From positions 1,575-65,574 of the IMG/VR virus record IMGVR_UViG_3300050151_000086: a DNA stretch of 64,000 nt; one strand, 5' to 3'. Both the position numbers and the translations under genes were made by a program. Source of the stretch: a virus. Positions 2,002 to 38,786 of this stretch are shown piece after piece. The notes beneath the pieces are model-generated. The model worked only from the letters and a program-made list of their open reading frames with translations. It did no database searches and was not told the DNA's origin. Position 1 is the stretch's first letter, and each line of letters begins with the position of its first letter.

Positions 2002-2649
2002 ATGAAGCTGTACGAAATTTACAAGGAACTGGTCCACGAGCGCTTGACTCCTGCAGAAGCAGCAGAAAAGTTCCGAATGACTGAGCAGGACCTGAAGTTC
2101 CGCATAACCCGGCACGGAAAACGCCTTCCACAAATCTTGAAGACGCTGGACCGTATCAACAATGACGAAATGACCAGGAGTGAAGCCTCAGCTCTGCTTC
2201 AGGTCGGTGAACGTCAAGTAAATAACCTGATGAAAAGCTGGACAGTTGCACGTCCGCTCAAGGAGTACCTGGTCCACAAGGCTGTCACAGGTGTGAAGTG
2301 GGAGATCAGGAAGAAGTTTGCGATTGAGTTCATCGCTGGTAGCTGCACCCTTGAGGAAGCGGCTGAAAATGCTGGTGTCACCGACAGACAAATACGTCGC
2401 TGGGTGAGTGATCTACTCAATACCCACTTCGGAATGGTGTTCAAAGACCTGAAAGAACTGACACTGACCAAGCGCTCGCGCCTGGCAGATGAGATTGAAG
2501 AGGCTGAAGGCCTCGAAGTTGCGAAAATGAACGTGCTGAATGAGGTTGTGAAGGGCCACAAGGCCATTGAAGAGCTTGCCTTGGAGCGCGTCTTGTCCAA
2601 GAGAAGCAACAGAAAGGTCGTAAATGTTCGAGGATTCACCCCCGATTGA
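2002..2649 (+). CDS. Multi-HTH DNA-binding protein
   Basis: Three HTH-like segments (TPAEAAEKFRMTEQDL; TRSEASALLQVGERQV; TLEEAAENAGVTDRQIRRW). Confidence 0.65.
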   Translation: MKLYEIYKELVHERLTPAEAAEKFRMTEQDLKFRITRHGKRLPQILKTLDRINNDEMTRSEASALLQVGERQVNNLMKSWTVARPLKEYLVHKAVTGVKWEIRKKFAIEFIAGSCTLEEAAENAGVTDRQIRRWVSDLLNTHFGMVFKDLKELTLTKRSRLADEIEEAEGLEVAKMNVLNEVVKGHKAIEELALERVLSKRSNRKVVNVRGFTPD

Positions 2650-3064
2650 CCTCGGAAGGGGCAAAAACGCCCCTGCCGGGGCCAAAGCTGCTCCATTTGT
2701 GTGGAAATCGCTGCCAATCAGTGATCTGATCCTCTACAGGGACCAGATCACTGAATGCCTGCCGGCAATCACATTGAGTGAGACCAACCTGGAGCAAGAG
2801 TTGCTGCTCCAGCTTCACGCTGTCCGCGCTCTGCAGAATGACGTAATCGGAGATGACGACATACCGCCAAACCAGCGTGCTCAGGTCGCCAACTCCGTCG
2901 CCGGTATCCTGAACAAGCTCGTGGACATGCAGAAGGCTGTCCAGACGCAGGAGCGGTTCAAAGCCATTGAGTCGCTGATGGTCAAACACCTCCAGAGACT
3001 GCCTGAAGAGACCGCCGAGGCGTTCTTGAAGGAGTACCGCGCACTGCTTGAGGACTTGAAGTGA
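2624..3064 (+). CDS. Putative terminase small subunit
   Basis: 146-aa helical protein two genes upstream of TerL; RBS GAAAGG; position-based call. Confidence 0.45.
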   Translation: MFEDSPPIDLGRGKNAPAGAKAAPFVWKSLPISDLILYRDQITECLPAITLSETNLEQELLLQLHAVRALQNDVIGDDDIPPNQRAQVANSVAGILNKLVDMQKAVQTQERFKAIESLMVKHLQRLPEETAEAFLKEYRALLEDLK

Positions 3065-3324
3065 CACAGTTACAGAAAAGGGTGTATGTGGCCTCCGCCA
3101 GCCTGCGCCTAGCCCAGGTGTTCTGCAGACTCAACAAGGTCAGGCCAGCAGACATGGTCTGGATTGGCAGGCCAGAGGCAGCGAAGGGCCTCAAGGGCGT
3201 GACCGTCTACGTCACTCGCTTTCAGCCGGCCGACTACTACACGATGCACGAGCTTGCCCTGCGGCGCGACTACTGCGACGTGAAGTTGATCGAGGTCGAA
3301 GTCGATCAGGAGATCGACCTTTGA
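3061..3324 (+). CDS. Hypothetical protein
   Basis: 87 aa, GTGA/TTGA overlaps with both neighbours. Confidence 0.7.
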   Translation: MTQLQKRVYVASASLRLAQVFCRLNKVRPADMVWIGRPEAAKGLKGVTVYVTRFQPADYYTMHELALRRDYCDVKLIEVEVDQEIDL

Positions 3325-5009
3325 ACAGCATCGCCCGCAACCATATCGAGCGCCTGGAGACGACGATCCTCAGGCGCTACACGAACGCGCAGATCGCACG
3401 CTGGATCACCGAGAACACGAAGTACGGTAACGACGCCTACAGCTACGTCGACCACGAGTACCAGGAGAAGATTCTCAACGACACGTCCAAGGACGTATCA
3501 GTACGCAAGTGCTCCCAGGTGGGTATCTCGGAGGCCAGCGCACGCATGGCGCTTGCCCTGGTCAACGTGATCTCGCCGTACACGGTCGCATACACGCTCC
3601 CCACGGCTCACTTCGCCGGCACGTTCACCAAGACGCGGATCGACCCAGTGATCGAAGGGTCGAGCAGCATGCGGGACGCTGTCCACAAGTCCAACAACAA
3701 CAACGAGGTCAAGCAGTTCGGCAACTCGTTCCTGTTCGTGCGGGGTGCGGCCTCCAGCAACGCTCCAATCTCGATCCCGTGTGATCACTTGATCCACGAC
3801 GAGGTTGATTTCAGCGACCAGGAGGTCTTGGGCCAGTACGTGTCCCGCTTGACCCACTCGAAGTGGAAGCGCACGCACCGTATCTCGACGCCGACACTGC
3901 CCAACTTTGGCATCGACAAGTTCTTCCAGGAGTCGCGTCGCCACTACTTGATGTGCAAGTGCAACCACTGCAACACATGGTTTGCACCGGACTACTACAA
4001 GCATGTCCGCATCCCTGACTTCACGGACGACTTGCGCACCATCACCAAGGGCAATATCGGCAAGACCAAGTACAAGCAGGCATACCTGAGCTGCCCAAAG
4101 TGCGGCCTTGAGCCCAGCTTGCAGGTTCAGCATCGTGAGTGGGTCTGTGAGAATCCCGACGACGGCTTCGAGGGCGCCGGCTACCAGGTCAGCCCGTTCG
4201 ATGCGCCCAACATCATCCAGGCTTCGTACCTGGTTGAGGCCAGCACCAAGTACGACCGGGTTCAGGACTTCGAGAACTTCAACTTGGGTATCCCGAGTGA
4301 AGACATGGAGGCCACCTTGACGCGGGCCGACATGGTTCCGCTGTTCTTGCTGCTGGAGGCGATGTCATCATCCAGTACCTACGTCATGGGTGTCGACGTG
4401 GGCAACACCTATCACTTTGCGGTTGCGGCCATTGATGGCTATGGCGACATGTTCGTCATCCACACCGAGAAGGTTGCGATGGGTGTTGTGCGGTCGAGGT
4501 ACGTTGAGATTCGGCGCCAATTCAGGGTGGCCTGCACTGTGATCGACTCTGGCCCGCATGCTGAGACTGTGATGGGCCTCCAGGAAATCGACCCCAATCT
4601 GTACGCTTCGGTCTACATGAGGTCCAAGTCAATCCTGACGCACAACGTGGTGACCAAGGACCTTGACGAAGGGAAGGGCATCGAGTTCCTCCGCCAGGTC
4701 AATGTGAATCGCAACCGGGCGTTTGACGGCTACATGAACTTCATCCGTGAGAACCACCTCACGATCAAGTTGACGGAGGATCAGGAGGAGATCATCCAGC
4801 ACCACACGTCGATGAAGCGGGTCAAGGTCTTCGACAATGATTCCGGTGAGATGACGTTTTCATGGCAAAAGACTGATGGCATTGACCACTTTCACCACAC
4901 CTTCCTCTACTGCTGGATCGCCGGCAAGATCAAGGGCCTGGGAAAGCCGATGATCATCCTGAACACCTGTCAGGCATTCAGTTTCCGCTTGAAGCCTAAA
5001 CTGACATAA
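3321..5009 (+). CDS. terL: Terminase large subunit, lambda GpA-like ATPase
   Basis: RKCSQVGISE Walker A variant, LIHDEVD Walker B, ISTPT motif, CxCxxC/CPKC zinc finger, GVDVG nuclease motif. Confidence 0.92.
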   Translation: MNSIARNHIERLETTILRRYTNAQIARWITENTKYGNDAYSYVDHEYQEKILNDTSKDVSVRKCSQVGISEASARMALALVNVISPYTVAYTLPTAHFAGTFTKTRIDPVIEGSSSMRDAVHKSNNNNEVKQFGNSFLFVRGAASSNAPISIPCDHLIHDEVDFSDQEVLGQYVSRLTHSKWKRTHRISTPTLPNFGIDKFFQESRRHYLMCKCNHCNTWFAPDYYKHVRIPDFTDDLRTITKGNIGKTKYKQAYLSCPKCGLEPSLQVQHREWVCENPDDGFEGAGYQVSPFDAPNIIQASYLVEASTKYDRVQDFENFNLGIPSEDMEATLTRADMVPLFLLLEAMSSSSTYVMGVDVGNTYHFAVAAIDGYGDMFVIHTEKVAMGVVRSRYVEIRRQFRVACTVIDSGPHAETVMGLQEIDPNLYASVYMRSKSILTHNVVTKDLDEGKGIEFLRQVNVNRNRAFDGYMNFIRENHLTIKLTEDQEEIIQHHTSMKRVKVFDNDSGEMTFSWQKTDGIDHFHHTFLYCWIAGKIKGLGKPMIILNTCQAFSFRLKPKLT

Positions 5010-5018
5010 CGGTACAAT
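4989..5018 (+). promoter_or_regulatory. Sigma70-like promoter TTGAAG-N18-TACAAT
   Basis: Overlaps the end of terL, directly upstream of the inserted module. Confidence 0.5.
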
Positions 5019-5040
5019 GGGAAGCAAGACAGGGCTTCCC

Positions 5041-5649
5041 ATGACACCGCTGAAGCAGAAACTGACCATCGAGCAAGGCCGGACCTTCCGCTTCCCCATC
5101 CGCTGGGAGTCGGAGGTGTTCGGCTATGCCGCCATTTCGGCCATTTCTGCCTCTGCCCCGTGCCTGGTGACCACCACCCAGCCCCACGGCATCCCAGAAG
5201 GCTGGAGGGCCGCTGTGGTGTCCGCACGGGGCATGGTCGAGATCAACGCCCTCCAGAGCCCCCCGGCAGATGACGAGTTCCGCCGCTCGACGGTGCGCTC
5301 CACCACCCAGATTGAGTTCAACGACCTGAACTCGGCCGACTTCACGGCCTACGTGTCGGGTGGCTACCTCCAATTTCGCCTCCCGGTCGACCTGACGGGC
5401 TACACCGCCCGCATGTCCGTCAAGGACAAGATCGGCGGCACGGTCCTGCTCTCGCTTTCATCCACGGATGGGTCCATCACGCTGGACAACACGACCAAGA
5501 CGATCACGCTGAAGTTGACAGCCACCGCAACGGCTGCCTACACGTGGAAATCTGGTGTGTATGACCTGGAGGTGGTCTCACCGACTGGAGACGTGTTTGC
5601 GTTGATCAATGGCGCGGTTGTCGTCGTCCAAGAGATAACCACCAACTGA
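5041..5649 (+). CDS. Putative virion structural protein (beta-rich; BppU/LtfC-like C-terminus with an FCCH-like insert)
   Basis: LTIEQGRTF...DLTGYTARM..K...GVYDLEVVSPTGDVFALINGAVVV; alternative start 5017. Confidence 0.55.
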   Translation: MTPLKQKLTIEQGRTFRFPIRWESEVFGYAAISAISASAPCLVTTTQPHGIPEGWRAAVVSARGMVEINALQSPPADDEFRRSTVRSTTQIEFNDLNSADFTAYVSGGYLQFRLPVDLTGYTARMSVKDKIGGTVLLSLSSTDGSITLDNTTKTITLKLTATATAAYTWKSGVYDLEVVSPTGDVFALINGAVVVVQEITTN

Positions 5650-5659
5650 GCCGAGACGC

Positions 5660-5959
5660 ATGAGTGATTCGCAACCTGGACCTGCATCAGGGTTCCCCCA
5701 CCCGCTCACTGAAGAGGCCATTGCCCAAGCTATCGAGCGCGGAATGATCCGAGCTGTCAGCAGCGACGCTTTCTGGGAGTCGGCCTCGAAGGCCATGAAG
5801 CGCCAGGCCCAGTCCACTGCTGGCAGCTTGCTCTTCGGTTGGATCAAGACGCTGTGGAACAAGTTCAGCCTTGTCATGTTGGGCCTGCTCGCCTTGTACT
5901 GGGTCGGCGGTTGGGCTGGTGTCGTCGCATTCCTGAAGGCCCAGGCCGTCAGCAAGTAG
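5660..5959 (+). CDS. Small membrane protein
   Basis: Hydrophobic C-terminus FSLVMLGLLALYWVGGWAGVVAFL. Confidence 0.7.
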   Translation: MSDSQPGPASGFPHPLTEEAIAQAIERGMIRAVSSDAFWESASKAMKRQAQSTAGSLLFGWIKTLWNKFSLVMLGLLALYWVGGWAGVVAFLKAQAVSK

Positions 5960-5968
5960 GAGTCAGCA

Positions 5969-6409
5969 ATGCCTGTTTTGACCATCATCTACGCACGTGG
6001 CAGCAACATCGTCAGCCGGGCCATCAAGGCTTTTGACCCGTTTGGGAAGTGGTCGCATTGCGGCGTCGTGACCGAGCGCGGCTCGGTGGTCGAGTCCCGC
6101 ATGCTGCACGGTGTTGTCGAGACCGAGAGCGCTGACTTCATGGCCCGCTACCCGGGCTTCGGCGCCACCTCCGCCATCGACATCCAGTGCCCTGACCCTC
6201 AGGCCGGTATCGCATGGGCACGCTCCAGGATCGGCAATGGCTACGACTACGGCGCCGTCTTGGGCATGCTGCTGCGGATCAAGTCTGCGGATCGCACGCA
6301 TGACAACTGCGTGGAGATCGCTGAGGGGGCTCTGGCTGCGGCTGGCCGCTCACGCCTGCGTGAAGCACCTTGGCGGATCACCCCGAACGTGAGCTGGATG
6401 ATCAAGTGA
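5969..6409 (+). CDS. Permuted papain-like NlpC/P60 (YiiX/YebB-type) enzyme
   Basis: His-before-Cys order: WSHCGVV...GYDY...DNCVEI. Confidence 0.8.
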   Translation: MPVLTIIYARGSNIVSRAIKAFDPFGKWSHCGVVTERGSVVESRMLHGVVETESADFMARYPGFGATSAIDIQCPDPQAGIAWARSRIGNGYDYGAVLGMLLRIKSADRTHDNCVEIAEGALAAAGRSRLREAPWRITPNVSWMIK

Positions 6410-6813
6410 CCACCTATGCCGTGATCGAGAAAGCAACGGGGGCTGAGGTCTACCGCTACACCGCTGACGCCCCGGTCGCGTGGGCCGGCTTCGAGTTCGC
6501 CACCCACGACCACGTTGCGCAGGCTGACCCGCTGGCGCCTGCTGCCCCCGAAGTGGTGCCCGAAGACTGGTTCATCAACGTCGGCCCATTCTTCGACAGG
6601 TTCGGCCCGTACAAGTACCCGATCCTCGCCAGCAGCGACGCGCTGGTGCAGGCCATCATTAAAGACTGCAGCGTGCGCAAGTACATCGACCTGAAGGGCC
6701 GCCGCGCTGATCTGCTCCAGGTGATCGGTTTACTGCAATCGAAGGGATTTCCGGTCACGGCAGCGACCGTGACCGACGCGAAGCCGGCTGAGGCAGAGGT
6801 CTACCGTGGCTGA
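6406..6813 (+). CDS. Hypothetical protein, possible fibre-assembly factor
   Basis: GTG start overlapping upstream TGA; 135 aa. Confidence 0.6.
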
Positions 6814-8980
6814 AAAATACTGTGACCATGGGGCGTATGGCGGCTCCGCGTTCACCGGGAGCATCAGCACAACCACGCTGACTGTTACGGCCATCGCATC
6901 GGGTGTCATCTCGATGGGTACTGAGGTCAGCGGCGCTGGTGTCACTGCCGGCACTTACGTGACTGCCCTGGGTACGGGCACCGGGGGCGCGGGCACCTAC
7001 ACCATCAGCACGTCGCAAACAGTGTCGAGCACCGCGATGACTGGCGCCTACGGCTCGCCTAGCGCAGTGCCGCGTGTGTTTGGCACCGCAGTAGAGGGTG
7101 ACGGTGCGGCGACAGGTCTGGCGACTTCGGCACTGCTGAACATCGACCTGTCTGCGGCCACTGCAGCCGCAGGCGCCGTCATCAGCATCATGGGCGCCAG
7201 TCTCACGTGCGTGGCGAGCGGCGCGGTCGCCAATCAGTTCAACGCCGGTGCGGGCGCGACACTGGTAGCCAACCTGGTCGCCGCGATCAACCGCACCACG
7301 AACACCAGCACGCTGGTGGCGCAGGCCGCGTCGTGGAGCACGCCGAAGTTGCAGGACGCCGTATTTGCGCAGATCGGCTCCCCCACGACCACGTTGCAGC
7401 TCATGACCCGCGCCGGGTCGGCGCAGTACAACACCAGCACCGTCACGACCAGTGGCCTGACGGGCGGCACGTTCGGGCCGTACACCTTCAGCGGCGGTGC
7501 GAGCGGTTGCTGGGGCAGCCTCGTGAACCTGAACACAACGGCTTTTGCGAGTGCTATTGCACGGTGCGGCTACGGTGTGTGGGGAACGCAAGCACCCCTT
7601 GCGGGCGCCACACTGGCCGGAGACAGGGTCTGGTTGCGTAGCAACAGATTGCTGCAGGCTCTCGCGTCATCGCCGCCGAACCTCGTGCCATATGTCATGG
7701 GTACGCAGTATGTGCCCGTTGACTTCGTGGTTGACGACCTTGCCACTGCTTGGACCTCTGACGCCGTTGGAAACTCTGTTGAATTCAGAAATATCCAGGG
7801 AGGTGGCACCCTGCTATTCGCTCCAAGTTTCACAACGGCGACGTTCATGCGTATCACCGGCAGAAAACTTGCTGACGGTACGTTCACACTGAAATTCTCG
7901 AACCGGAACTCGGCGGTAGGTGTGACCCTGGCTGCAGCGGCAGCATTGGAAATGGCCGGCTTCTCCTTGGACGGCAGCGGCTACAACGCCGCAGTCGGCA
8001 TTTATTCCCTCGGGTCAACCCCGGCAGGTCAGAGGTCTGTTTTTCGCAACTTCTTGATGACCACCAACAGGTCACAGACCGGCTCTGTATTTTTCAGTCA
8101 GCAGACCACAAGCTCTTACGCTGTGGACTTTGTGGACTTTGAGGTCAACAACACCGGAGCCTCCACAGCCCACCCTGGAATCTTCAGCCAGGCAGGTAGC
8201 AGCATGTACTCCTTCAGGAGTGGCAAGTTCACAGGGTTCGTGATCGGCAGCGAGCTTGCTCAGTCATTGGCTGGTACTTCGCAGGCACTTGCTTACACCT
8301 TTGAAAACATCTCCTGGGGGAATGTCACCAAGCGGGGACCGTATGTATCCACGATTCTGGCGGCCGGTGGCTTCCTTGATATAACCCAGCGGTGCATATC
8401 AACCGTCAATCGTGATGCACTCAGAGAGTTCTCAATCGACCAAGTGAAAGGGTTTGTCTCTTGGTCTGCGACCCGTGGGCAGCCAGTCTGCACGGCATTG
8501 CTGGATGATGGCGTCACTGGTTACTCGATCATGGTCCTGCCGTCCACTCAGCAGAGCACCACAGGCTGGTCTGTGCCCCTGAAATTGCCACGTTTTGGCA
8601 AGATGAACTCATTTGGGGATGGTGCCAGGACGATCTCAGTAGAGTTCGTGGCTGAGCAGACGTTGGTCCCAACCTCAGCCATCGTCTCGATGCAGGTTGA
8701 GTACCTGGCAGTAGACGGGTCAAGGGTGTTGATTGATACGTTTGATCGTGCCGCTACAGCGATACCGACATCTACCAAGACATGGACTAACGAGGCTGGT
8801 GGATTCGTGACATTCCAGAATGGTGGCACTGTCAACCACAGCAAGTACAAACTGTCAGTCTCAAGTCTGCCCGCCAAACCTATCAAGGGTGGGACGGAGG
8901 TGTCAGTGTGGTTCTTCATCCGTGGATATGTTGCTGACACCAGCAAGACCTACTTCTTTGATGAACCCCAATTGACATGA
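6806..8980 (+). CDS. Putative fibre/spike or receptor-binding protein, 724 aa
   Basis: Thr/Gly/Ser/Ala-rich beta-type sequence; N-terminal [10 protein letters not shown]...[11 protein letters not shown] motif typical of fibre proteins. Confidence 0.6.
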
Positions 8981-9372
8981 GCTTCGTATCATTCGACGTT
9001 CTGCCCTCATATGCGGGCACCGTCAATATACCCACAGCGCGCAGACCAGCCAGGCCTCAGGGCCTGGAGGTCTATGCCAGGCAGACACTCCCGACTGACC
9101 CAACCGGGTCAGCGACACTCATCATTTCTGGAATTCCTGATGGGACCGACATTGTTGTTTTGAACGCCGGCACCACAAACGTGATTCTGCAGGTGGATCA
9201 GAACCCTGGAACGACTTACGTATTCAACTACTCAGTCTACAGTGTGGATACGGCAGTTGACATCGGCTTGATTAAGCCGGGCTACGAGTTGCATTACATC
9301 AGGAATCTGACACTGCCACGGATCAATACCACCCTTCCGGTCGCGTTGCGACTTGACCGCAACTTCTCTTGA
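8977..9372 (+). CDS. Hypothetical beta-sandwich virion protein
   Basis: 131 aa, coupled ATGA overlap. Confidence 0.55.
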
Positions 9373-9381
9373 GGAACTGCC

Positions 9382-10728
9382 ATGGCAAAGATTACCACCC
9401 GCGCCGGCTTGAATGTCGGCACCGAATTGACCGTCGATGAGACGACCAAGACATTCACACTGAACGTGGCAGGCAGCCTTGTCGCCAAGGATGGTGTGAC
9501 GCTACAGGCGCTCTACTCGAAGTTCGTCGAGCTGTGGGCGACGGCGAGCTACCAAGACAGTCCGTTCCCCATGTACGCGATTGACGCGCTGAGCGGCCAG
9601 TTCCAATTCGGCACCGACGGTGCGACTTACTCTGGCTGGAAGCCTGCCGACGACGCCACGCGCCAGAAGTTGCGCGACGGTGGCTGGTCCGAGTACAGCT
9701 CGGCTGGCGTCCTGAACCGGCAGTATGTCGGCATCGTGGGCCTGGGTGTCGTGTCATCTGCTGCGCAGCTCTACTACCAGGCTGACCCTGCTGATGCGCC
9801 GACGAATTTCACGTTCAGTGATCAGGCCAACCAGGGCATCCAGGTCTACGGTGACGCGACGAACGGCTCATTCGACAAGCGGGTCTACTTCAAGGGCTTC
9901 GTGCGTGAGTACGGCCAGAAGTACAAAGACTCGGTCCTTGCTGACACCGGCAAGCTGGCGACGGGCGCCTACATCGTCAACCTGCTGCTGTCGAATGAGG
10001 CCGACCTGAAGATTCAGGCCAATGACGCAGCCATGTCGGGTGCGCCTTACAGCGGCATCACGATCACCTACAGCGCGACGAACGTGAACCGCTTGATCGG
10101 CGGCACCAACTACCCCTTCCGCGTCATCATTGCCGGCAATGGTGCGACCCTGGAGCAAATCTACACCAAGGTGCAGTACCTGTTGCGCCAGTCGACCGAC
10201 GTTGACTCCGGTGTTGGCACGGTGATCGGTAAGACGGCGGCTGCGCTGTTGGCCTTCACCGGCGACAACCTCGTGACCAGCACGGGTGTCTACATCGACA
10301 ACATGTTGGCAGCCGACAGCAACCGCGTCACGTTCACCGATCAAAACGCTGTGGCACGGACCAACCCCTACACGGCAGCCGGCATCATCACTGCCAACAC
10401 GCCGCTGGTGGGAACGGGTTCGAGCTACCGCCTGATGTTCGAGACGCTGCCGGGCGCGAACAACGACTACGGCGAGTCCGGTGCCGTCACGGTCAACGAC
10501 GCGGCCGGCACGCCGATCACTGGCGTCATCACCAGCGCGAGCATTGCGTTCACGTTCGACTATGACGCCAACGTGCAGGGTGGCCGTACTGCTGCCACTG
10601 ACGCGGCTGTTGTGCTGGTGGGCATCAAGCCTGGCACGGGTAAGTTCGTGGTGGCACGCGGCACCCTGACCCGCAGCAAAGCAATCGTGCTGGCGCTGGT
10701 GGCCGAGCAGGACCGCGCCTACGTCTGA
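9382..10728 (+). CDS. Putative virion structural protein, 448 aa
   Basis: RBS GAGGAA, strongly biased phage codon usage, beta-rich composition. Confidence 0.65.
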   Translation: MAKITTRAGLNVGTELTVDETTKTFTLNVAGSLVAKDGVTLQALYSKFVELWATASYQDSPFPMYAIDALSGQFQFGTDGATYSGWKPADDATRQKLRDGGWSEYSSAGVLNRQYVGIVGLGVVSSAAQLYYQADPADAPTNFTFSDQANQGIQVYGDATNGSFDKRVYFKGFVREYGQKYKDSVLADTGKLATGAYIVNLLLSNEADLKIQANDAAMSGAPYSGITITYSATNVNRLIGGTNYPFRVIIAGNGATLEQIYTKVQYLLRQSTDVDSGVGTVIGKTAAALLAFTGDNLVTSTGVYIDNMLAADSNRVTFTDQNAVARTNPYTAAGIITANTPLVGTGSSYRLMFETLPGANNDYGESGAVTVNDAAGTPITGVITSASIAFTFDYDANVQGGRTAATDAAVVLVGIKPGTGKFVVARGTLTRSKAIVLALVAEQDRAYV

Positions 10729-10733
10729 CCCAG

Positions 10734-11162
10734 GTGGCGATCACCTTCGACCCCGCCGCGAGGCGGGTCATCCTCGACAGCGCAGCGGCGTCAGCCAGCG
10801 AGATTTGGTCTCGCTGGACTGACTGGGCTACGCAGGGTGACAACCTCAAGCACCCACCCGCGATGCGACAGCTTGGCGGGGATTCGCTTGGTGGCAGTCT
10901 GCTCGTGCCCATCTACATCTTCCTGCTTAACGGCTGGCGTGTACGGCCTATGGAGTCGAACCACACACTGTCAATCGTTGGAAACTTGTTCGTCGAGGAG
11001 GGTGGGTCACCTGTTGTCAACACCATCGGGGCGTTCAATGTCTCGACCACACTGACTGTCCCCGTTCAGGCCCAGGGGTACAACACGGGTGGGTCGGCCG
11101 CACTGAGTCCGTCTGACATAGCCGCCATTGCGGCAGCCGTCTGGAACAAGGTACTCCCTTGA
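10734..11162 (+). CDS. Putative virion structural protein
   Basis: 142 aa, operon context (MAITFDPAARRVIL...). Confidence 0.6.
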   Translation: MAITFDPAARRVILDSAAASASEIWSRWTDWATQGDNLKHPPAMRQLGGDSLGGSLLVPIYIFLLNGWRVRPMESNHTLSIVGNLFVEEGGSPVVNTIGAFNVSTTLTVPVQAQGYNTGGSAALSPSDIAAIAAAVWNKVLP

Positions 11163-11737
11163 ACTTCGGGGAGCGCCTCGCGTCGCTCAGTGGGCTGACG
11201 GGTGTCAGCGCTGCTACCCATCTGCGGAGATTGGTTGGTGTTGGTGGCACAGCCGGGGCGATGCTCCTGACTTACTCCGGCCTGGTCAGTGGCACGGCGA
11301 CACAGCACATCCTGGCGGCACACGCAGCACTCAGCGGTGTGGTCCTCGACCAGGTGTTTGTTCACCGCGCAGAGACCGACTCCACCGTGGCCCTCTACGC
11401 GCCACGGACGTTTATCAGGAGTGTTGCCGACCTGTTGTTCACTCAACGAGATCAGCCGATGGCCTGGGCCTGGACGGAGCGCAACGAGGCGCACGCCGTG
11501 CGAGCCTATGCAGGACTCGCTGCGGTGAGGCCCACTCAGGGGGTCAGCCCAACCCGGGATGAGCTACGGGTGTTCGCCTCAATGCAGACGACTGCTGCAC
11601 ACCATTGGAGGCAGTTGCAGTGGTGCCCAGTGGTGAGCATAGCTACCAGCGCAACGCCAGTCATTGCGTACTACCAGTCAACTCTGACAGAATCGCGCCA
11701 AAGGAACGAGCTATTCGTTCGTGGAGAAATGCAATGA
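11159..11737 (+). CDS. Hypothetical protein
   Basis: 192 aa, overlaps both neighbours by 4 nt. Confidence 0.55.
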   Translation: MNFGERLASLSGLTGVSAATHLRRLVGVGGTAGAMLLTYSGLVSGTATQHILAAHAALSGVVLDQVFVHRAETDSTVALYAPRTFIRSVADLLFTQRDQPMAWAWTERNEAHAVRAYAGLAAVRPTQGVSPTRDELRVFASMQTTAAHHWRQLQWCPVVSIATSATPVIAYYQSTLTESRQRNELFVRGEMQ

Positions 11738-13278
11738 AAAACCCGTTCAGTGGTCTGTTCAGCAGGACTGAGATCAGCGCCGCCAGTCAGTTCCCCTCAC
11801 CGCCGCCTCCCAAGGTCTCCAACAAGCAGCAGTCCTTCCCGTCGTATTTGACGACAGCGAAGCCGAGCCCAGACTCACTCCTGCTGATCAAGGACCGACA
11901 GCTTGCCAATACTGACATCACGACCCTACGTACTGGCATCGACAGTCGCCAGGTCGTCCGTGACTTTGTTCGTGCCAGCCCTGACCTCAGCGCTGCGGTG
12001 CAGGCCTACGTCCGCACGGGCATCACCAGTGGTTTCACGGCAGTCGCCAAGAGCCTTGACGGCGCGTTCGACCCTGAGGGCACAGCCGCCCTTGCCCAAA
12101 TCATCACCCGCTTCAACGTCCTCAATGACTACCAGATCGGCTTTGATGATGCCCCGTCGATCCGAAGCCTGAGCGAGACCTGGGCACGCGAGATTCTGAT
12201 GACTGGCGCGATGGCCGGCGAGCTGGTACTCGACAAGGCCCGCTTGCCAGACAAGCTCCAGCCGATCAGTGTGAGCCAGATCAAGTTCTATCCGAGCAAG
12301 GATGGCAAGAAGCTGATCCCGGTGCAGCGCCTGGCTGGCGAGGAGGTCGACCTCGACATCCCGACATTCTTCATGGTCACCTTGGATCAGGACACGCTGG
12401 AGACGTACCCAGTTTCGCCGCTGGAGCCGGCCATCCAGGCAGTCATCTTCGCAGCCGAGTTCATGAATGACATCCGCCGCATTGTGAAGAAGGCCATCCA
12501 TCCTCGTGTGGTTGTGACCATAGACGAAGAGAAGTTCCTGAAGGGCCTTCCTCCTGATGTGAGGCAGGATCAGGACAAGTTGAACGCCCACATGGCGAAC
12601 GTGCTTTCCTCTCTGGAGAGCAAGATCAACGACCTGTCGCCCGAGGATGTCCTCGTCATCTTCGACACGATTGGTGTGGAGGTCACCGACCACGGAAACA
12701 CTAACCTGAGCAACGAGTACAAGGTCATCCAAGACCTTGTCAACGCCAAGATGGCGACAGGTGCGAAGGTGCTGCCAACTGTGTTGGGCCACTCGAATGG
12801 CACGTCGAACACAGCCAGCGCTGAGGTCTTGATCTTCATGAAGTACGTGGAGGGTACGGTCTGGGCCAAGCTCAACGAGATGTTCAGCAAGATGCTGACC
12901 CTCGCGCTGCGCCTGCTGGGTCACGACTGCTACGTCGAGTTCGCGTACAACCAGATCGACCTGAGGCCCGACAGCGAGCTTGAGGCCTTCCGTGCCATGA
13001 AGCAGAGTCGCTACCTGGAGCTGCTGAGCCTGGGCATGATCGGCGACGAGGAGTGCAGCGTCGCCCTGACGGGCCACCTACCGCGTGACGGCTATACGCC
13101 ACTTGCGGGCACTGGCTTCCGGCCGGGTACATCAGTTCAGCCGGCCGGTGATGGGTTCAATGGGGCATCCAATGGCGGCAGCACCATGAACCAGAACCTG
13201 AACTCGACAGCGCCCAAGGGAGCCAAGTCACAGAACATGAGGTCAAAGGCGGAAGTCACCGCCTTGAGTCCGACCTAA
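11734..13278 (+). CDS. Portal protein
   Basis: About 514 aa from ATG 11734 (RBS GGAG, ATGA overlap); position before protease and capsid; helical fold pattern. Confidence 0.8.
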   Translation: MKNPFSGLFSRTEISAASQFPSPPPPKVSNKQQSFPSYLTTAKPSPDSLLLIKDRQLANTDITTLRTGIDSRQVVRDFVRASPDLSAAVQAYVRTGITSGFTAVAKSLDGAFDPEGTAALAQIITRFNVLNDYQIGFDDAPSIRSLSETWAREILMTGAMAGELVLDKARLPDKLQPISVSQIKFYPSKDGKKLIPVQRLAGEEVDLDIPTFFMVTLDQDTLETYPVSPLEPAIQAVIFAAEFMNDIRRIVKKAIHPRVVVTIDEEKFLKGLPPDVRQDQDKLNAHMANVLSSLESKINDLSPEDVLVIFDTIGVEVTDHGNTNLSNEYKVIQDLVNAKMATGAKVLPTVLGHSNGTSNTASAEVLIFMKYVEGTVWAKLNEMFSKMLTLALRLLGHDCYVEFAYNQIDLRPDSELEAFRAMKQSRYLELLSLGMIGDEECSVALTGHLPRDGYTPLAGTGFRPGTSVQPAGDGFNGASNGGSTMNQNLNSTAPKGAKSQNMRSKAEVTALSPT

Positions 13279-13326
13279 GTCAACCCCAATACTTTGCCGG
13301 TGAACCGGCGCAACTGAGCACCAACC

Positions 13327-13467
13327 ATGACCAAAGACGAACTGATGGCCGCCATTGACAATTTCTTCGGCGACACGAGCCGCCCGGCCAGCGAGACGAA
13401 AGAAACACTTGCAGAGATTGCGGACCATGCCGCGATGCTGGCCGAGAGCATTGCGGACGACGACTAA
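13327..13467 (+). CDS. 46-aa acidic hypothetical protein (not in ORF track)
   Basis: Hand translation MTKDELMAAIDNFFGDTSRPASETKETLAEIADHAAMLAESIADDD. Confidence 0.6.
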   Translation: MTKDELMAAIDNFFGDTSRPASETKETLAEIADHAAMLAESIADDD

Positions 13468-13490
13468 TTCCCAGCCCCCAGAGGTGACCC

Positions 13491-13799
13491 ATGACATACA
13501 CCGTGACTGAGACCCGCACCTGGCAGCCGTCGCTCACGCCTGCAGATGCTGCACATCTGCAGGCCCTCGGACTCGCGGGCTCGTGCATCAAGGGCAACCC
13601 GTGGATGGCGCACCTGAAAGTGCCGGGCGAGAGAGCCGCGCTCTGCGGCAAAGAACCCGGAGGCTCTGGGCGTGCCAGGCGCATGGTGGATCGTCGCGGG
13701 TGGCTGGTCTACAAGACCTTCGAGGCACCGGGGCGCCAGCCCTGCGAAGCCTGCCTGAAAGCAGCCGAGATCTTCAAGGCGCCGGCAATCCCGGCCTGA
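13491..13799 (+). CDS. Hypothetical protein, possible Zn-binding
   Basis: AHL...ALCG...PCEAC motif; RBS GAGGT. Confidence 0.65.
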   Translation: MTYTVTETRTWQPSLTPADAAHLQALGLAGSCIKGNPWMAHLKVPGERAALCGKEPGGSGRARRMVDRRGWLVYKTFEAPGRQPCEACLKAAEIFKAPAIPA

Positions 13800-14043
13800 T
13801 TTCCCATCCCCTGCCGGTGCCCATGACATGGCCAATCAATCTAACCTGATACGAGCTCTGCGCGACATGCACGCACGCGGGCAATGTCGGGTGCGCGGCA
13901 GCTCTGTTGCCGCCGCGCTGTGGCCCGGCCAGCGCACTCATAACGCAAAGGGCCAGGTTTTCCCGGCTCTGCGGAATAACGTGTGGAAAGCTGCATGATG
14001 TAGCATAATCAAATACCTGATTTTCGCGTGGAAAGGAGCGGTC

Positions 14044-14352
14044 ATGGCGCTGAGCGGATTTGTGTCGAGAGAGGACCGGGCCACTCGGCTGGTGATGACC
14101 AAACAGGGCTTTGTCACGGCGGTCAGACGCGCGCCACAGGACTACGACGTTTTTATGGAAGGCGTGAGATTGGGCCGTGCTGTAAAGTTCAAACACTGGT
14201 ATCCCGAGGTTGCCGGCGACAAGCGGTTGATGTGGCAGTACGGCGATGGGTCTCGGTTCCCACAAAGCACGCGACAGGCGGCTATCGAGTGGGTCGTCAA
14301 ACACCACGTGCGCACGGTGGCCTGCGCCGAACCGCACGGGGCGCTGGCATAG
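14044..14352 (+). CDS. Hypothetical protein
   Basis: Strong RBS AAAGGAG. Confidence 0.65.
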   Translation: MALSGFVSREDRATRLVMTKQGFVTAVRRAPQDYDVFMEGVRLGRAVKFKHWYPEVAGDKRLMWQYGDGSRFPQSTRQAAIEWVVKHHVRTVACAEPHGALA

Positions 14353-14456
14353 CCGGTCGCATGCTCAAGGCGTGCAAGGCAGTGCGCGAGGTGAGCCCAG
14401 GCGAGTACGAAATCCTCACCCACCGGTTGGGCTGATCCCAGCCCCCAGGGGTACAT

Positions 14457-14669
14457 ATGGGATTCATCAAACGCCAAATTCGTCGCTGGTGCGGCTACGA
14501 TGACCTGCTGGCCGAGTATGGTCGGCTGGCGCGGGCAGTGGCGGCAATGGTCGACTCAGTACCCGCACCGCCGCTGCCAGGCCCACCTAGAAGGCGCACC
14601 CCACACTGTTGGCGTGACACGTCTCCGACCCCACCGAAGATTAGCCCAAAGCGTGACACAATCGCGTGA
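14457..14669 (+). CDS. Hypothetical protein, 70 aa
   Basis: Follows motif copy 3; RBS GGGGT. Confidence 0.45.
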   Translation: MGFIKRQIRRWCGYDDLLAEYGRLARAVAAMVDSVPAPPLPGPPRRRTPHCWRDTSPTPPKISPKRDTIA

Positions 14670-16171: not shown

Positions 16172-16648
16172 ATGCCCAAGTTCATCTTCACCGAGCTGGT
16201 GGATGTCGAAGAAGTCATGACCGTGCGCCTCGGCGCCGGCACTGGCACCGCCAACAACTACAGCGACAAGGAAGTCGCCAAGTTCGTCAAGCAGGTTGCT
16301 GAGTCGCGCTACGCCTTGTCTGTGGTTGGCGATGAGATCGAGGGTCGCATCACCTCCATTGAGACCGCGACGCAGGACGGCTACACCATCGGTGGCGTCT
16401 GCCCCGAGTCGCGCTTTGAATGCACCTTCGACGGCCTGCAAGGCACCCCCGGCACTGGCGTGCTCGCCATCGGTGATTACGTGGTGACCGGCACCCCTGT
16501 CGCCAAGGACACCGCTCTGACGGTGCCGGCCCGTGTCTGCAAGGCCACGGCTGCTGGCAGTGCTATGAACTTCAAGTGGCGTGTCGTTTCGCTCGGCAGC
16601 GCGGGCACTGGCGCCGTGGGCACCACGGGCTTGATCGACCGCGTCTGA
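16172..16648 (+). CDS. Head decoration / capsid cement protein
   Basis: 158 aa between scaffold and MCP, strong RBS GAGGAG, highly biased codons. Confidence 0.7.
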   Translation: MPKFIFTELVDVEEVMTVRLGAGTGTANNYSDKEVAKFVKQVAESRYALSVVGDEIEGRITSIETATQDGYTIGGVCPESRFECTFDGLQGTPGTGVLAIGDYVVTGTPVAKDTALTVPARVCKATAAGSAMNFKWRVVSLGSAGTGAVGTTGLIDRV

Positions 16649-29082: not shown

Positions 29083-29793
29083 ATGATCGACCTGATGATG
29101 GCCCATGCGGCTGATGAATTCCCCAACGAGTGCTGTGGCCTGCTGGTCACTGGCCCGAGGGGAGATAGGCTTGTCAGGGCGAAGAACCTGGCGATCCAGC
29201 CTGGCAGGGAGTTCGACCTTGACCCCGACGCCTGGCTTGAGGTTGAGGATGACGAGACTGTGTCTGCGGTCTACCACTCGCACCCCAACGGCACCAGCGA
29301 GCCCAGTCTTGCCGACAAGTCGGCCTGCGAGTCCTCCGGCTTGCCGTGGCACATCGTGGGCTACCCCGGGGGAAGTCACACCCTGATCGACCCATCAGGC
29401 TTCGATGCGCCCTACCTGGAGCGCCCCTACGTTCACGGCGTGCATGACTGCTACTCCATCGTGCGTGACTGGTACAGGCGTGAGTGTGGTGTCGAGTTGC
29501 CTGACTTCGACCGCCGCGATGGTTGGTGGAACCGTGGCGAGAACCTGTACGTGGACAACTTCGCGGATTGCGGCTTCACTCAGATCAGTGACGAACCGAA
29601 GCTCGGCGACTTGTTCCTGATGCAGGTTGGCTCACGCAAGCCGAACCACGCTGCGATCTACATGGGTGATGGCACGATCCTGCACCATGTCTACGGCAAC
29701 CTGTCATCCCTGGACGCCTGGGGCGGCTACTGGCTCAAGCACACCGTGATGACGATCCGCCACGAAAGCCGGATGAGGACCACCCATGGTTGA
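29083..29793 (+). CDS. Tail tip assembly protein, lambda gpK-like (JAB + NlpC/P60)
   Basis: ECCGLL, YHSHP...PSLAD, DCYS, NHAAIY...ILHH. Confidence 0.92.
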   Translation: MIDLMMAHAADEFPNECCGLLVTGPRGDRLVRAKNLAIQPGREFDLDPDAWLEVEDDETVSAVYHSHPNGTSEPSLADKSACESSGLPWHIVGYPGGSHTLIDPSGFDAPYLERPYVHGVHDCYSIVRDWYRRECGVELPDFDRRDGWWNRGENLYVDNFADCGFTQISDEPKLGDLFLMQVGSRKPNHAAIYMGDGTILHHVYGNLSSLDAWGGYWLKHTVMTIRHESRMRTTHG

Positions 29794-30754
29794 AGTACGC
29801 CTCCACGGCCCGCTGGCTACCCAGTTCGGTGCCCACTGGGACCTCGACATCAGCACACCGCTTGAAGCTGTGTCTGCCATCGAGTGTGCCCGGCCAGGCT
29901 TTCGACAGGCGATTGCAGACCTTGCCGAGAAGGGTATGGTCTTCCGCGTCAGGACCAAGAACCACGACTACGGCGAGGAAGACATCGCCATGCGTCTTGG
30001 GTCGCAGCGTCGGGTCGACATCGTCCCCCTCGTACTCGGTGCGAGCGCAGGCGTGCGCTTCGTCATCGGGGCTGTGCTGATTGCAACCAGTGTGATGTTC
30101 CTTGGGGGTCCAACCAACCCTCTGGGCGCTGCTGTGTTTGCTACAGGCACCAGCCTGGTACTTGGAGCAGTCACCGAGTGGCTCACCCCCAACATCAAGA
30201 GGGATGACACCCCCTCGGGCCTGCAGAGTTGGGGTATCAGCGGCCCGACCAACACAGCGGATCAGGGCAGCCCTGTGCCTGTCATCTATGGTGAAGTCCT
30301 GACGGGTGGCTACCCCATCAGTGCCGGCTTGACATCTTCAGCCTATGGCTCGGACGCGGCAGCCACCAGCACTGCCACCATTGGTGGCGAGAGCGACTTC
30401 TCTGTCTCGCTCGCAACGTCGGATAGTGGTGTCGTCACAGCCTCTATCAGTCTCAGCGTGAGCACGGCCTATATCGACGAAGACGTGACCTACTCCTGGA
30501 GCTACTCTGGCTTCCCAGGCAGCCAGGCCGTCCGACTTGTCCGTGGCAACACGGACTCAGTCATTCTTGAGGTTGACTACGTCATCGGCACGGTGCTGAC
30601 CAGTGCTTTCTTCGAGAGCTATGGCAATCTGGCCGTTACCGTCAATGGCTACTACAGGTCAGCGTACACACAGGTGGGTGGGCGCTCTGCCCGGTCGGCT
30701 TCTACAAACAGACAGGTGCGCGTGTATCTCCAGCGCCCGTTCGAGGGTGCATGA
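29786..30754 (+). CDS. Tail tip assembly protein, lambda gpI-like with C-terminal extension
   Basis: VRLHGPLA..FG, QGSPVPVIYGEVLTGG..ISAG followed by about 140 extra aa. Confidence 0.85.
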   Translation: MVEVRLHGPLATQFGAHWDLDISTPLEAVSAIECARPGFRQAIADLAEKGMVFRVRTKNHDYGEEDIAMRLGSQRRVDIVPLVLGASAGVRFVIGAVLIATSVMFLGGPTNPLGAAVFATGTSLVLGAVTEWLTPNIKRDDTPSGLQSWGISGPTNTADQGSPVPVIYGEVLTGGYPISAGLTSSAYGSDAAATSTATIGGESDFSVSLATSDSGVVTASISLSVSTAYIDEDVTYSWSYSGFPGSQAVRLVRGNTDSVILEVDYVIGTVLTSAFFESYGNLAVTVNGYYRSAYTQVGGRSARSASTNRQVRVYLQRPFEGA

Positions 30755-33700
30755 GCATGCGGATCATTGGTTCTGGTGGTGGTAAGGGCGGTAGTGGTGC
30801 TGGCGGTGTCAGTGAGTCTCCTGACACGTTGGCGTCGGTAACGACTGCGAGCTTTGTCGACTTGATCTCCGAAGGCGAGATCGTCGGCCTGGTGAACAAT
30901 GACTACTCCATCTACATGGATGGTGTACCGCTGAAGACGATAGTCTCCGATACCACTCTGGGCGCCTACGCCTTCGACAACCGTCAAGGCGCCCAGGGCC
31001 AGACGGTGATGTCAGGCTTCTCTGGCACGCAGAGTGAAATCTCTGTCAATAGCCTGAAGATACTCGCCACCCAAGGCAAGGTCATCAGGGCTGTGACCGA
31101 CGCCGATGCGGACTCAGTCCGCTTCAACGTCTCAGTGCATGGCCTGTACCAGACCACCAGTGATGGCAAGGTCACTGGCAGCAGCGTCAACTTCCGGCTG
31201 TGGAAGCGGATCACTGGAGGCGCCTGGGTCTCTGTGCGTGAGGAGACCATCACTGGGAAGACCACTTCCAACTACCAGCGGTCGATTGAGGTCGACCTGA
31301 ACTCACTTGGCGCTGGACCCTACGAGATCGCCATCGAGCGAATCAAGGACGACTCTGCCAGCGGCCTCCTGGTGGACGCACTGTACTGGGACAGCTACAC
31401 GGTCATCAATTACGAGCAGCTCCGCTACCCGAACTCAGCACTCGTTGGCGTTCGCATCAACGCGCAGTATTTCAGCTCGATACCAGCCCGCACCTACCAC
31501 GTCAAGGGTCTGCTAGTGAAGGTGCCTGACAACTATGACCCAGTCACCAGGGTCTACCGCACCACCGGCGCCGGCACGACCAATGGCGCGTGGAACGGGG
31601 CGATGAACCAGGTCGCCTACACCGACAACCCGGCCTGGTGCTACTTCGACTTGATGACCAGCTCCCGCTACGGCCTGGGCGAGTTGATCGACGCATCGAA
31701 GATCGACAAGTGGGCGCTGTACCAGATCGCGCAATACTGCGACCAGCTTGTGCCCACGGGCCTGACGCTGAACGTGTTTGGCCCGAAGGGCTCAGCAGGT
31801 GTCACCAGCAGCGGCCAACCGATGGCCGGCGTGCCCCTGACGGTGGGCAACTCTGAGCGCCGTTTCCGTCTGAACTGCGTATTGAACACACGTGACGATG
31901 CCTACCGTGTGTTGAACCAGTTGACCTCGGTGTTCTGGGGTATGGCGTACTGGGGCTCGAACAGTGTCACCTTGACGCAGGACCGGCCGACAGCCCCGTC
32001 CATGCTCTACACCAACGCCAATGTGGAGGGCGGCCTCTTCACCTACGAGGGTTCTGCCAAGAGCCAACGCAACACCGTCGCTATCGTCGGCTGGAATGAC
32101 CCAGCCGAAGACTTCAAGCAGAAGTTCGAGTACGTCGAGGACCGCGACGGCATCGCCCGCTACGGCCTGCGCTCTACCGACGTAGTTGCCTTTGGCTGTA
32201 CCTCACGCTCACAGGCCCGTCGCATGGGTCTGTGGCTGCTCTATACCCAGCGCCTTGAGACTGAGATGATCTCGTTCAAGGTGGGCCAGGATAGCGCCTT
32301 CGTGCGCCCTGGTGCAGTCATCAAGATCAAGGACAACGACTACGCCGGCATCCGCTGGGGTGGCCGTGTCACCTCCTGCACTACCACGCGCCTGGAGTTC
32401 GACTCTACTGTTGACTTCCCGGTCGGCACACATACCTGCACGATCATCCAGCCCAACGGCACCCCCTACGCCTTCCAGTTCCTTTCCAACGGCACTGCTG
32501 GTGCCACAGGCATCAACCTCAGTACCCCCTTCACAGCCTCGCAGCAGCCAATCGTTGGGGCCGTCTGGATGGTGGAGACTTCGAGCCTGGCAGCGAGGCT
32601 CGCCCGGGTAGTCTCTACGAGGCATGATGGCATCGGCTACCGGATCACTGCCCTGGAGCATGACCCAGGCAAGTATGCTGCCATCGAGTCCGGTGCCGGG
32701 TACGAGAAGTACAACTACACGGTGATCAGCTACGACAGCGTGCCGCCTGTCACCGGCCTTGCTGCCGTTGAGAGCACCTTCATCCCGACAGGGACGAGGG
32801 ACTTCACGAGTCGCCTGGAAATCTCCTGCGACGCGATCAACTCAAGCCAGGTGCGGGGTTACATCTTCGACGTGACAGGGAGCGATGGTAGCGGCTACAC
32901 GTTCCCGGAGACCAGCTCGCCCACGGCGACGTTGGAGAACGCGCAGCCGATCACCTACACGATCACTGCGAAGGCAGTCAACTCGTTGGGCATCGCTGGA
33001 GCCAAGGTCGCCATCGTGAAGACGGTGTTGGCGATTGACCAGCGCAACCCGCCCAGCGCCATCGGTCTGGCTGTCACGACTGAGTTTGCCAACTTCATCA
33101 TCTCTTGGACGGCACAGACTTACCCGGAGGGTGGTGGCCACAAGAAGGTCTCTGTCTACGCCAGCACCACCAACCTGTTTACAAACGCGGTGCTGGTTGG
33201 AGATAGCGAAGGCAACAGCTTGACCTATGCATCGGCGCCGTCGAAGACCCTGTACTTCTTCTTGCGCAACACTTCAGTCAATGGTCAGAAGCAGGTCACG
33301 GCAACTGGCCCAGTCTCTGCGACCACTGCAACGATTGCCTCTGCGCAGAATACGCAGGTCTACCTTTACCGATGGTCGGTGTCGCAGCCAGCCAAGCCGG
33401 CCGGCATCAGTACCTACACCTGGAGCAGCTCGACTCACTCTGGCTACACGGGTGTTGACGGCTGGAGCACAACGATCCCACCCAACACGGGTGTGAGTGG
33501 CCTGCAGTTGTGGGCCTCGCAGATCAGGGTTAGTGCCGCATCCGACTCTGCTTCGATCAACATTGATTGGACTGCCTCGGCATCTGCGGTCATGCTTGCC
33601 TCCATCTCCGCCAATGCAACGGCTGTGTCGGCAATTGTCACTACGGTCTACCAGTCCTCGGCATCACAGCCAACCACCCCGACCGGGGGTTCCTATGAGT

Positions 33701-36639: not shown

Positions 36640-37110
36640 ATGATCATCTCCACACTCCTCTCCTTCTTCGGTGGCACCGCCTTCCGCATGGTCTGGGGCG
36701 AGATCAGCAGTTGGATCACTGCAAGGCAGGACCACAAGTTCGAGATCGAGCGGATGCAGGCGCAGGAAGCGATCAACGCCGCTGACCACTCCCGCAACCT
36801 TGAAGCCATGAAGGTCCAGGCGGAACTCAAGATCGAGGTCATCACGCAACAGGGCGACGTTGACATCTCCAAGATCGACGCCGAGAGCTTCGGCCGAGGT
36901 GTCGAGGGTCTGTCCAAGCTGTCAGGCTTCAAGCCGGTCGACGCCTGGAAGGCATCAATCCAGCCGGCTCTGGCGACGATGATCATGTTCCTACTGGTCA
37001 AGCACTATGCGAAGGCTGGGTGGGTGATGGATGAGCACGGCTGGGAGCTTGCCGGTGGCGTACTCGGTCTGTTCATCGCTGACCGCATGCTGTTCCGCAG
37101 AGGCAAGTGA
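36640..37110 (+). CDS. Membrane protein, putative holin
   Basis: Hydrophobic N-terminus and two C-terminal hydrophobic segments; directly upstream of endolysin. Confidence 0.55.
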   Translation: MIISTLLSFFGGTAFRMVWGEISSWITARQDHKFEIERMQAQEAINAADHSRNLEAMKVQAELKIEVITQQGDVDISKIDAESFGRGVEGLSKLSGFKPVDAWKASIQPALATMIMFLLVKHYAKAGWVMDEHGWELAGGVLGLFIADRMLFRRGK

Positions 37111-37584: not shown

Positions 37585-37609
37585 GGCCCGACTCTGTCGG
37601 GCCTTTTTT
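37585..37609 (+). terminator. Rho-independent terminator of late arm
   Basis: GGCCCGAC-TCT-GTCGGGCC-TTTTTT. Confidence 0.85.
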
Positions 37610-38666: not shown

Positions 38667-38786
38667 GATCGCTTTCCTGTTGATGGTGTCACCTGTGGTG
38701 ACACCGTGGTGCCAATGGTAGTCGGCTCCCCAGGTGCATATCCGGCGATTCCTGGTGACGCTCGGCACCAAGGAATGACGCAATTG

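Follow-up and report, generated by a model that had tools for sequence, protein, structure and literature searches.

A 64,000-nucleotide (nt) stretch of viral DNA (positions 1,575 to 65,574 of IMG/VR virus record IMGVR_UViG_3300050151_000086, hereafter the window) carries a block of nine genes, g1 to g9, between the genes for the large terminase (terL) and the portal. The block is probably a virion-appendage module centred on a mobile cassette of the type associated with the 'horn' of phage Syn5, and its product is likely an extra fibre borne on the head or neck rather than a second tail tip. When compared with other loci by homology, the block is composite: it contains a core made of g5 and g6 together, g7 and g8 (6806-11162), a recurrent companion, g4, and other genes. 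The complete record from which the window was taken is 81,622 bp long, was rated complete by CheckV and is of metagenomic origin, without a cultured host. Protein lengths are given in amino acids (aa). The block and its boundaries are as follows, ORF standing for open reading frame.

3321..5009, + strand: terL, left boundary, outside the module (PF05876 GpA_ATPase, E 1e-21; 68% identical to the terL of locus L007)
4989..5018, + strand: TTGAAG-N18-TACAAT promoter-like motif, whose -10 box overlaps ATG 5017
5017..5649, probable start ATG 5041, + strand: g1, collar-type two-domain all-beta protein (phrog_1084, E 7e-28)
5660..5959, + strand: g2, 99 aa, with a single C-terminal hydrophobic segment
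5969..6409, + strand: g3, permuted NlpC/P60 (Peptidase_C92 / YiiX-like) cysteine hydrolase by fold
6406..6813 (the ORF opens at TTG 6370), + strand: g4, ~135-aa cassette accessory protein
6806..8980, + strand: g5, 724-aa body of the large variable 'X' subunit, gp54-type, without its docking domain
8977..9372, + strand: g6, 131-aa stand-alone 'dock' domain
9382..10728, + strand: g7, 448-aa all-beta core subunit, homologue of Syn5 gp53
10734..11162, + strand: g8, 142-aa homologue of Syn5 gp55, starting 6 nt past the g7 stop
11159..11737, + strand: g9, 192 aa, without family (GC content at third codon positions, GC3, 0.68)
~11734..13278, + strand: portal, right boundary, outside the module (phrog_3753, E 5e-73; 66% identical to the portal of L007)

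The g7 protein was aligned with Syn5 gp53 over its full length by tblastn (residues 1-447, 37% identity, E 3e-67), and a hidden Markov model (HMM) of g7 homologues matched gp53 at E 1e-177. The g8 HMM matched Syn5 gp55 (E 5e-31). The HMM of the g6 domain matched g6 itself (E 3.5e-34) and the C-terminus of Syn5 gp54 (residues 539-618 of 622, E 1.6e-10). On this homology, g7 can be firmly assigned as a gp53 homologue, g8 as a gp55 homologue, and g5 and g6 jointly as a gp54-type large subunit. Both gp53 and gp54 are annotated in GenBank as structural proteins. In the work of Raytcheva in 2014 these two proteins are said to form the Syn5 horn. Cryo-tomography placed the horn at the vertex opposite the tail, and found it to be added after the tail (PMC4238041). 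The three families are adjacent in the window and belong to the late structural genes in both phages. Syn5 is a T7-like podovirus, whereas the phage of the window is a temperate lambda-type siphovirus. The gene order is 53-54-55 in Syn5 and X-g7-g8 in the window, where two genes, g5 and g6, encode the large subunit, the g5 body is unrelated in sequence to gp54, and g1 (the collar-type gene), g2, g3, g4 and g9 are added. An earlier sequence-only reading had put the block forward as a candidate for an undescribed structural system; this description does not stand, a studied relative being available in Syn5.

The proteins of the X type were ~450-1230 aa long, most often ~860 aa, and were variable outside a conserved C-terminal domain of ~85 aa, the dock. 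In the window this domain is a separate copy (g6). The dock is usually fused to a ~860-aa protein in other loci, and g5 and g6 total 855 aa. The same type of split, with the two parts in different frames, was also found in L004, L007, L101 and the P0427 contig. The g5 family comprised ~60 full-length homologues at 32-49% identity, which are conserved in the N-terminal third and vary in the middle. It had no Pfam domain, and a profile search with g5 against the PDB returned no relative. Residues 14-88 of g5 form a small domain exchanged among fibre-like proteins by shuffling, and this domain occurs in the tail-fibre family phrog_38233 (E 4e-11), and a weak ESM lead pointed to a beta-helix or pectate-lyase fold (feature score 0.83). 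Ten large-subunit proteins from other loci had no Pfam or PHROG match, and for g2, g4, g6, g7, g8 and g9 no PHROG family was found even at E <= 10; the core trio is without a Pfam family as well. In Maribacter phage Panino (L099:10354-13772), consecutive proteins of 414 and 724 aa each end in a dock domain (E 1.8e-10 and 3.2e-12); different distal subunits may thus share a single g7 core.

The AlphaFold2 model of g7, computed from 55 sequences, was almost all beta (pLDDT, the predicted local distance difference test, 94; pTM, the predicted template modelling score, 0.81). The beta-rich character previously ascribed to this protein was thereby borne out; its description as a high-expression protein was supported by no test. 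The C-terminal domain (residues 328-447) was a CnaB or transthyretin-like sandwich (Z 8.6 with VIA-align, a generic match). Among predicted viral structures, the best match of g7 was Syn5 gp54 (E 2.5e-9), and the two horn proteins therefore seem to be built from related modules. No solved relative of g7 was found by phmmer against the PDB; Foldseek against the PDB gave just weak pilin- or adhesin-like strings (template modelling score, TM, < 0.2) and no whole-protein resemblance; the ESM Atlas shape search was uninformative. Some g7 homologues have insertions near residue 220-235. The N-terminal ~70 aa of g8 resembled the N-terminus of g7 (hhalign probability 61%, E 8e-5). The resemblance between g6 and the C-terminus of g7 was weak (hhalign probability 6%); both end in D-R-(N/A)-(Y/F), and homology is not claimed. 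A complex of g7, g8 and g6 was predicted with a score of 0.00, which counts neither for nor against binding.

More than 3191 homologues of g7 were found in a collection clustered at 90%, none of them with a Pfam domain or an informative name; they fell into 732 clusters at 50% identity. Gene order was surveyed in 80 IMG/VR loci, of which 65 were non-redundant. One ORF was matched by the dock-domain HMM in each of 81 loci. The dock-bearing ORF was directly upstream of g7 in 59/65 non-redundant loci, and g8 was directly downstream in 55/65. Homologues of g4, which has no family match, were present one or two genes upstream of the large subunit in 9/65 loci; in L101 and the P0427 contig a gene of the size of g4 directly precedes the large subunit. 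The unit g4-g5-g6-g7-g8 recurs in otherwise unrelated phages, and the cassette is firmly considered a self-contained, transferable unit. The sequence-only reading had treated the nine genes as one system that might move as a block among unrelated phages. Such movement holds for g4-g8 and fails for the whole block: g1 accompanies the cassette in ~8% of loci, and g2, g3 and g9 are lineage-specific. A search of the phage collection at the DNA level found no relative of the nine-gene block, and the matches of the single-protein genome scan were contigs of metagenome-assembled genomes only.

To describe the position of the cassette, 56 large proteins encoded upstream and 62 encoded downstream were scanned against Pfam.

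Upstream neighbours: 15 portals of five families (lambda, Mu, HK97, T4, SU10), 13 large terminases, 4 capsid proteins, 1 tape measure protein
Downstream neighbours: 9 prohead proteases, 10 capsid proteins of five families including T4 gp23, T4-type scaffolds, Mu F, 6 portals

None of the 62 downstream neighbours belonged to a tail family. The phages among which the cassette moves have at least six portal types, and its place is mostly within head-gene modules. Examples are the P0028 contig (portal-134-172-470-g7-177-309-capsid), L014 (terL-portal-capsid-202-X-g7-g8) and L101 (terL-P22 portal-g4-g5-g6-g7-g8-...-capsid). The closest relative of the window, L007, has a major capsid protein 70% identical to that of the window and is colinear with it, except that g4-g8 stand after the portal; g1-g3 are absent there. 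In L017, L021 and L056, g7 was 64-67% identical to that of the window, versus 30-39% for terL and 39-45% for the portal. 

Three observations on individual loci can be added. The interval between portal and protease in the window (13280-14666) consists of 1.4 kb of small ORFs at the exact spot occupied by g4-g8 in L007, and may be a scar or replacement left by a rearrangement. The GC3 of g5 (0.68) and g6 (0.63) is below that of g1, g3, g4 and g7 (0.80-0.82), a hint of later exchange for the distal subunit and its dock than for the other cassette genes. In L084 (564-18663 of an 86.8-kb JGI contig), where g7 is 83% identical, the cassette lies between genes for a DarA_N/InPase protein, an LPD3 protein and a 2183-aa N6_Mtase-helicase protein; these neighbours are like the P1 Dar genes (DarA/DarB-like), which are capsid-packaged anti-restriction genes.

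The first gene of the block, g1, was modelled by AlphaFold2 as an all-beta protein of two domains (pLDDT 96.5). Its closest solved relative by sequence was chain M of PDB entry 26dk, a 197-aa 'Structural protein' (E 1.4e-28, query 16-207 versus chain 7-195). This chain is identical at 195/197 positions to a 197-aa ORF of Pseudomonas phage CRPAP1904 (KPP25-like), a 62-kb sewage phage growing on carbapenem-resistant P. aeruginosa. Phage A1002, a 63.8-kb podophage of the genus Kochitakasuvirus, has the same source and host type as CRPAP1904 (2026 PLoS Biology; PMC13730344). Its collar protein gp33 is 197 aa long, has a double jelly-roll fold and forms a 15-mer ring on the head-to-tail adaptor under the portal, bound to this adaptor's beta-dock domain (PMC13730344). 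No fibre was seen on this ring, just an unresolved 'bonding protein'; the similar collars of DEV and GP4 carry tail fibres (PMC13730344). From the length of the chain, the phage type and the PDB code series (26DE, 26FB, 26GP and 46KE are the codes of the A1002 paper; PMC13730344), we infer that 26dk_M is the neck collar gp33 of A1002. The g1 protein is of the same size, is modelled with two all-beta domains and aligns over the full length at ~33-35% identity. A1002 differs in being a podophage without a horn cassette, and a ring of g1 would be putative.

The nine ORFs of the block (5017-11737) all lie on the + strand, and successive stops and starts are separated by gaps or overlaps of -8 to +10 nt, including ATGA and GTGA overlaps. 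The separation of terL and portal by tightly coupled genes, as first described, was thus confirmed. GC3 was 0.63-0.82 across the nine ORFs, which is coding-like for a 60% GC genome. The start of g1 is more likely ATG 5041, because homology begins at residue 9 and the -10 box of the motif overlaps ATG 5017. For g4 the more likely start is GTG 6406, which gives a GTGA overlap with the g3 stop. The promoter that had been attributed to the block was not supported: the motif is present, with 3 sites in 12 kb versus 2.5 +/- 1.8 in shuffled sequences, and is not above chance. Upstream of terL (2002-3064), a 215-aa ORF with several helix-turn-helix motifs and a 146-aa ORF, both colinear in L007 at 43-63% identity, probably encode the small terminase together with a partner. 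Downstream of the portal are genes for an S49 prohead protease, the major capsid protein, the tail tube (PF18906), the tape measure protein, the tail tip and an endolysin. The features used below are these.

16172-16648: decoration-type gene beside the major capsid protein gene
Tail tip M: PF05939
Tail tip L: PF05100
29005-29793: K-like tail-tip protein with NLPC_P60 and JAB domains
29786-30754: I-like ORF, named by position and size alone, no Pfam match in the scan
30751-36612: J-like ORF of 1953 aa, named by position and size alone
37107-37559: endolysin (Phage_lysozyme, PF00959)
37608-38783: integrase

The phage is thus a temperate, lambda-type siphovirus. A complete lambda-type tail tip elsewhere in the genome, which the sequence-only reading had reported, was found again, with M, L and K recognized by Pfam. 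Since K has an NlpC/P60 domain, the phage encodes two enzymes of the NlpC/P60 clan (K and g3) besides the lysozyme.

The homology of the core, its transfer as a unit among head genes, the separate tail tip and the presumed neck-collar relative of g1 fit an accessory head or neck appendage, and a second virion structure apart from the lambda-type tip, as originally proposed, agrees with them. In such an appendage, g7 would serve as a conserved hub or shaft, onto which the variable body, g5, would plug through the g6 dock domain. The g8 protein, with an N-terminal domain shared with g7 and a variable C-terminus, would join or cap the assembly or link it to the particle. The finished fibre would be added late to the head or neck, possibly mounted on a g1 collar, and would bind reversibly to cell-surface polymers, while DNA would be delivered through the separate lambda-type J tail tip. 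The proposed order of assembly is drawn from which parts are conserved and which variable. Lambda side tail fibres (Stf/Tfa) are alike in being dispensable, accessory adhesion fibres of a phage whose tail tip is of the J type; they have no sequence or family similarity to the cassette, and their genes follow J instead of standing beside the portal.

Several points weigh against a Syn5-type fibre on the head or neck. The presence of these proteins in the particle of this phage, and their location there, are predicted from genes. The code 26DK is not printed in the A1002 paper, and a literature search on this code found no paper. The gene g1 accompanies the cassette in ~6/80 loci, in each case with a few small genes between it and the large subunit downstream, and a collar is therefore not required for the cassette. 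The remaining points favour lateral tail fibres, in which g1 would be a distal-tail collar like p132 or LtfC and g5-g8 the fibre, its adaptor and an assembly factor, the whole being an ordinary host-range determinant encoded near the portal. The fold of g1 equally matches tail-tip collars: Foldseek returned T5 p132 (7qg9_L) and DT57C LtfC (8hqz_Q) with a probability of 1.0, TM 0.60-0.64 by target and E ~1e-5. Both form dodecameric tail-tip collars, and the beta-sandwich fold is common to them and g1. In sequence, g1 matched the LtfC family PF23926 below the Pfam gathering score (20 bits versus a cutoff of 27, E 0.0011). Of the initial label 'BppU/LtfC-like', the LtfC part was therefore retained on fold and sequence, and the BppU part was dropped, no BppU family being among the Pfam or PHROG matches. 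LtfC anchors lateral fibres by beta-strand augmentation (PMC10713586). However, g1 has an extra N-terminal barrel domain, and no gene for an LtfA-like coiled-coil fibre follows it. MD8/F10-like Pseudomonas phages carry g1 relatives after the tail-tip genes, among tail-distal genes. In L013 the cassette and a g1 homologue end a tail cluster (tape measure protein ... g1-X-g7), and genes for a PF09327 tail-tip protein and DUF4376 come after the cassette in the P0427 contig. The occurrence of the g5 domain of residues 14-88 in a tail-fibre PHROG points the same way.

Lateral tail fibres are nevertheless considered unlikely. In most loci, covering six or more portal lineages, the cassette lies between the portal and the protease or capsid genes. 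The sole studied homologues are those of the Syn5 horn, on the side opposite the tail, provided that gp53 and gp54 form it. By sequence, the closest solved relative of g1 is presumably a neck collar and not a tail-tip collar. Unlike a receptor-binding fibre, g7 is far more conserved than terL and portal (64-67% versus 30-45%). Within the block, g1 is the only gene whose homologues have already been assigned to tail-fibre or baseplate parts, through the T5/DT57C collar fold and the Pseudomonas relatives. The latter (MD8 gp23, L083:7001-7588, and proteins of LESphi2/3) are annotated 'tail fiber' or 'L-shaped tail fiber protein' by prediction. The nearest solved relative of these Pseudomonas siphophage proteins is again the presumed neck collar protein (E 3.4e-24), and the 'tail fibre' labels in the Pseudomonas phage records may be wrong. 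The attachment site of a Syn5-type fibre is left among capsid vertex, neck and tail tip, since the LtfC-like fold, like a minority of the loci, suggests the tail.

It is still less probable that g7, g8 and the large subunit are capsid decoration or cement proteins, binding many sites on the lattice in the form of knobs or head fibres, chiefly to stabilize the shell, with no single horn or collar fibre. The usual position of the cassette adjoins capsid and protease genes, and the g8 homologue of Syn5, gp55, was assigned to knob densities on the capsid hexons (PMC4102127). This assignment was tentative and made by secondary structure alone (PMC4102127), a point that also counts against the Syn5-type fibre. 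An ESM feature match of g7 with the crAss001 auxiliary capsid protein was weak, its score of 0.83 being under the trust level of the tool. A decoration-type gene is already present in the window, next to that of the major capsid protein. Many unrelated families of major capsid protein are served while g7 stays 60-80% identical, which argues against direct contacts of g7 with the lattice.

The remaining genes, g2, g3 and g9, recur in none of the related loci surveyed. As first proposed, g2 is a small membrane protein: it has one hydrophobic segment (residues 70-92, Kyte-Doolittle 19-residue maximum 1.93), is predicted to span the membrane once, had no family match and was absent from the 80 related loci. 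The ESM Atlas model of g3 matched a YiiX/YebB-like cluster in which 80% of members have PF05708 (TM 0.88, feature score 0.96). His30 (WSHCG) precedes Cys114 (HDNCVE), as in the permuted members of the YiiX/YaeF papain-like amidases, and g3 matched phrog_1128 (E 2e-13). No Pfam family, including PF05708 and PF00877, was matched at E <= 0.1, in which g3 differs from these amidases, and g3 lies outside the conserved cassette. By its modelled fold, g3 is a permuted NlpC/P60 (Peptidase_C92-type) hydrolase, in agreement with the first annotation; its catalysis is predicted, and the maturation or wall-acting function first proposed for it is conjectural. For g9 no family was found, and just its N-terminal ~60 aa resembles the ORF that follows g8 in L006 and L007. 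A phage lysis pair formed by g2 and g3 was considered and rejected as the principal explanation because of the Phage_lysozyme gene at 37107-37559. That the block is moron-type cargo outside the virion, such as a lysis or exclusion pair of g2 and g3 together with surface proteins expressed by the prophage, is very improbable: g2 and g3 do resemble a small membrane protein and a wall hydrolase and the phage is temperate, but the genes lie within a late structural operon with overlapping stops and starts, Syn5 gp53 and gp54 carry the annotation of virion structural proteins, a canonical endolysin is encoded elsewhere, and the conserved cassette does not include g2 and g3.

Beyond the window, a wider reading of the Syn5-type cassette is put forward tentatively, as possible rather than probable. 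Horn-type appendages could be a common, exchangeable accessory organelle made of a gp53-type core, a distal subunit plugged in through the 85-aa dock and a gp55-type partner; in the phage of the window the dock would be a free adaptor and the fibre would sit on a gp33-type neck collar. To our knowledge, the function of the Syn5 horn has gone unexplained since 2007. The horn proteins of Syn5 belong to no curated family, and the same three proteins are found here, linked to a collar protein with a solved relative. The confidently folding g7 core and the g6 dock, naturally separated from its cargo, give handles on this structure, and cultured carriers are available in Syn5, S-TIP28 and Maribacter phage Panino. 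If the reading is true, the block would give a lambda-type siphovirus a new, whisker-like device for sensing or adhesion.

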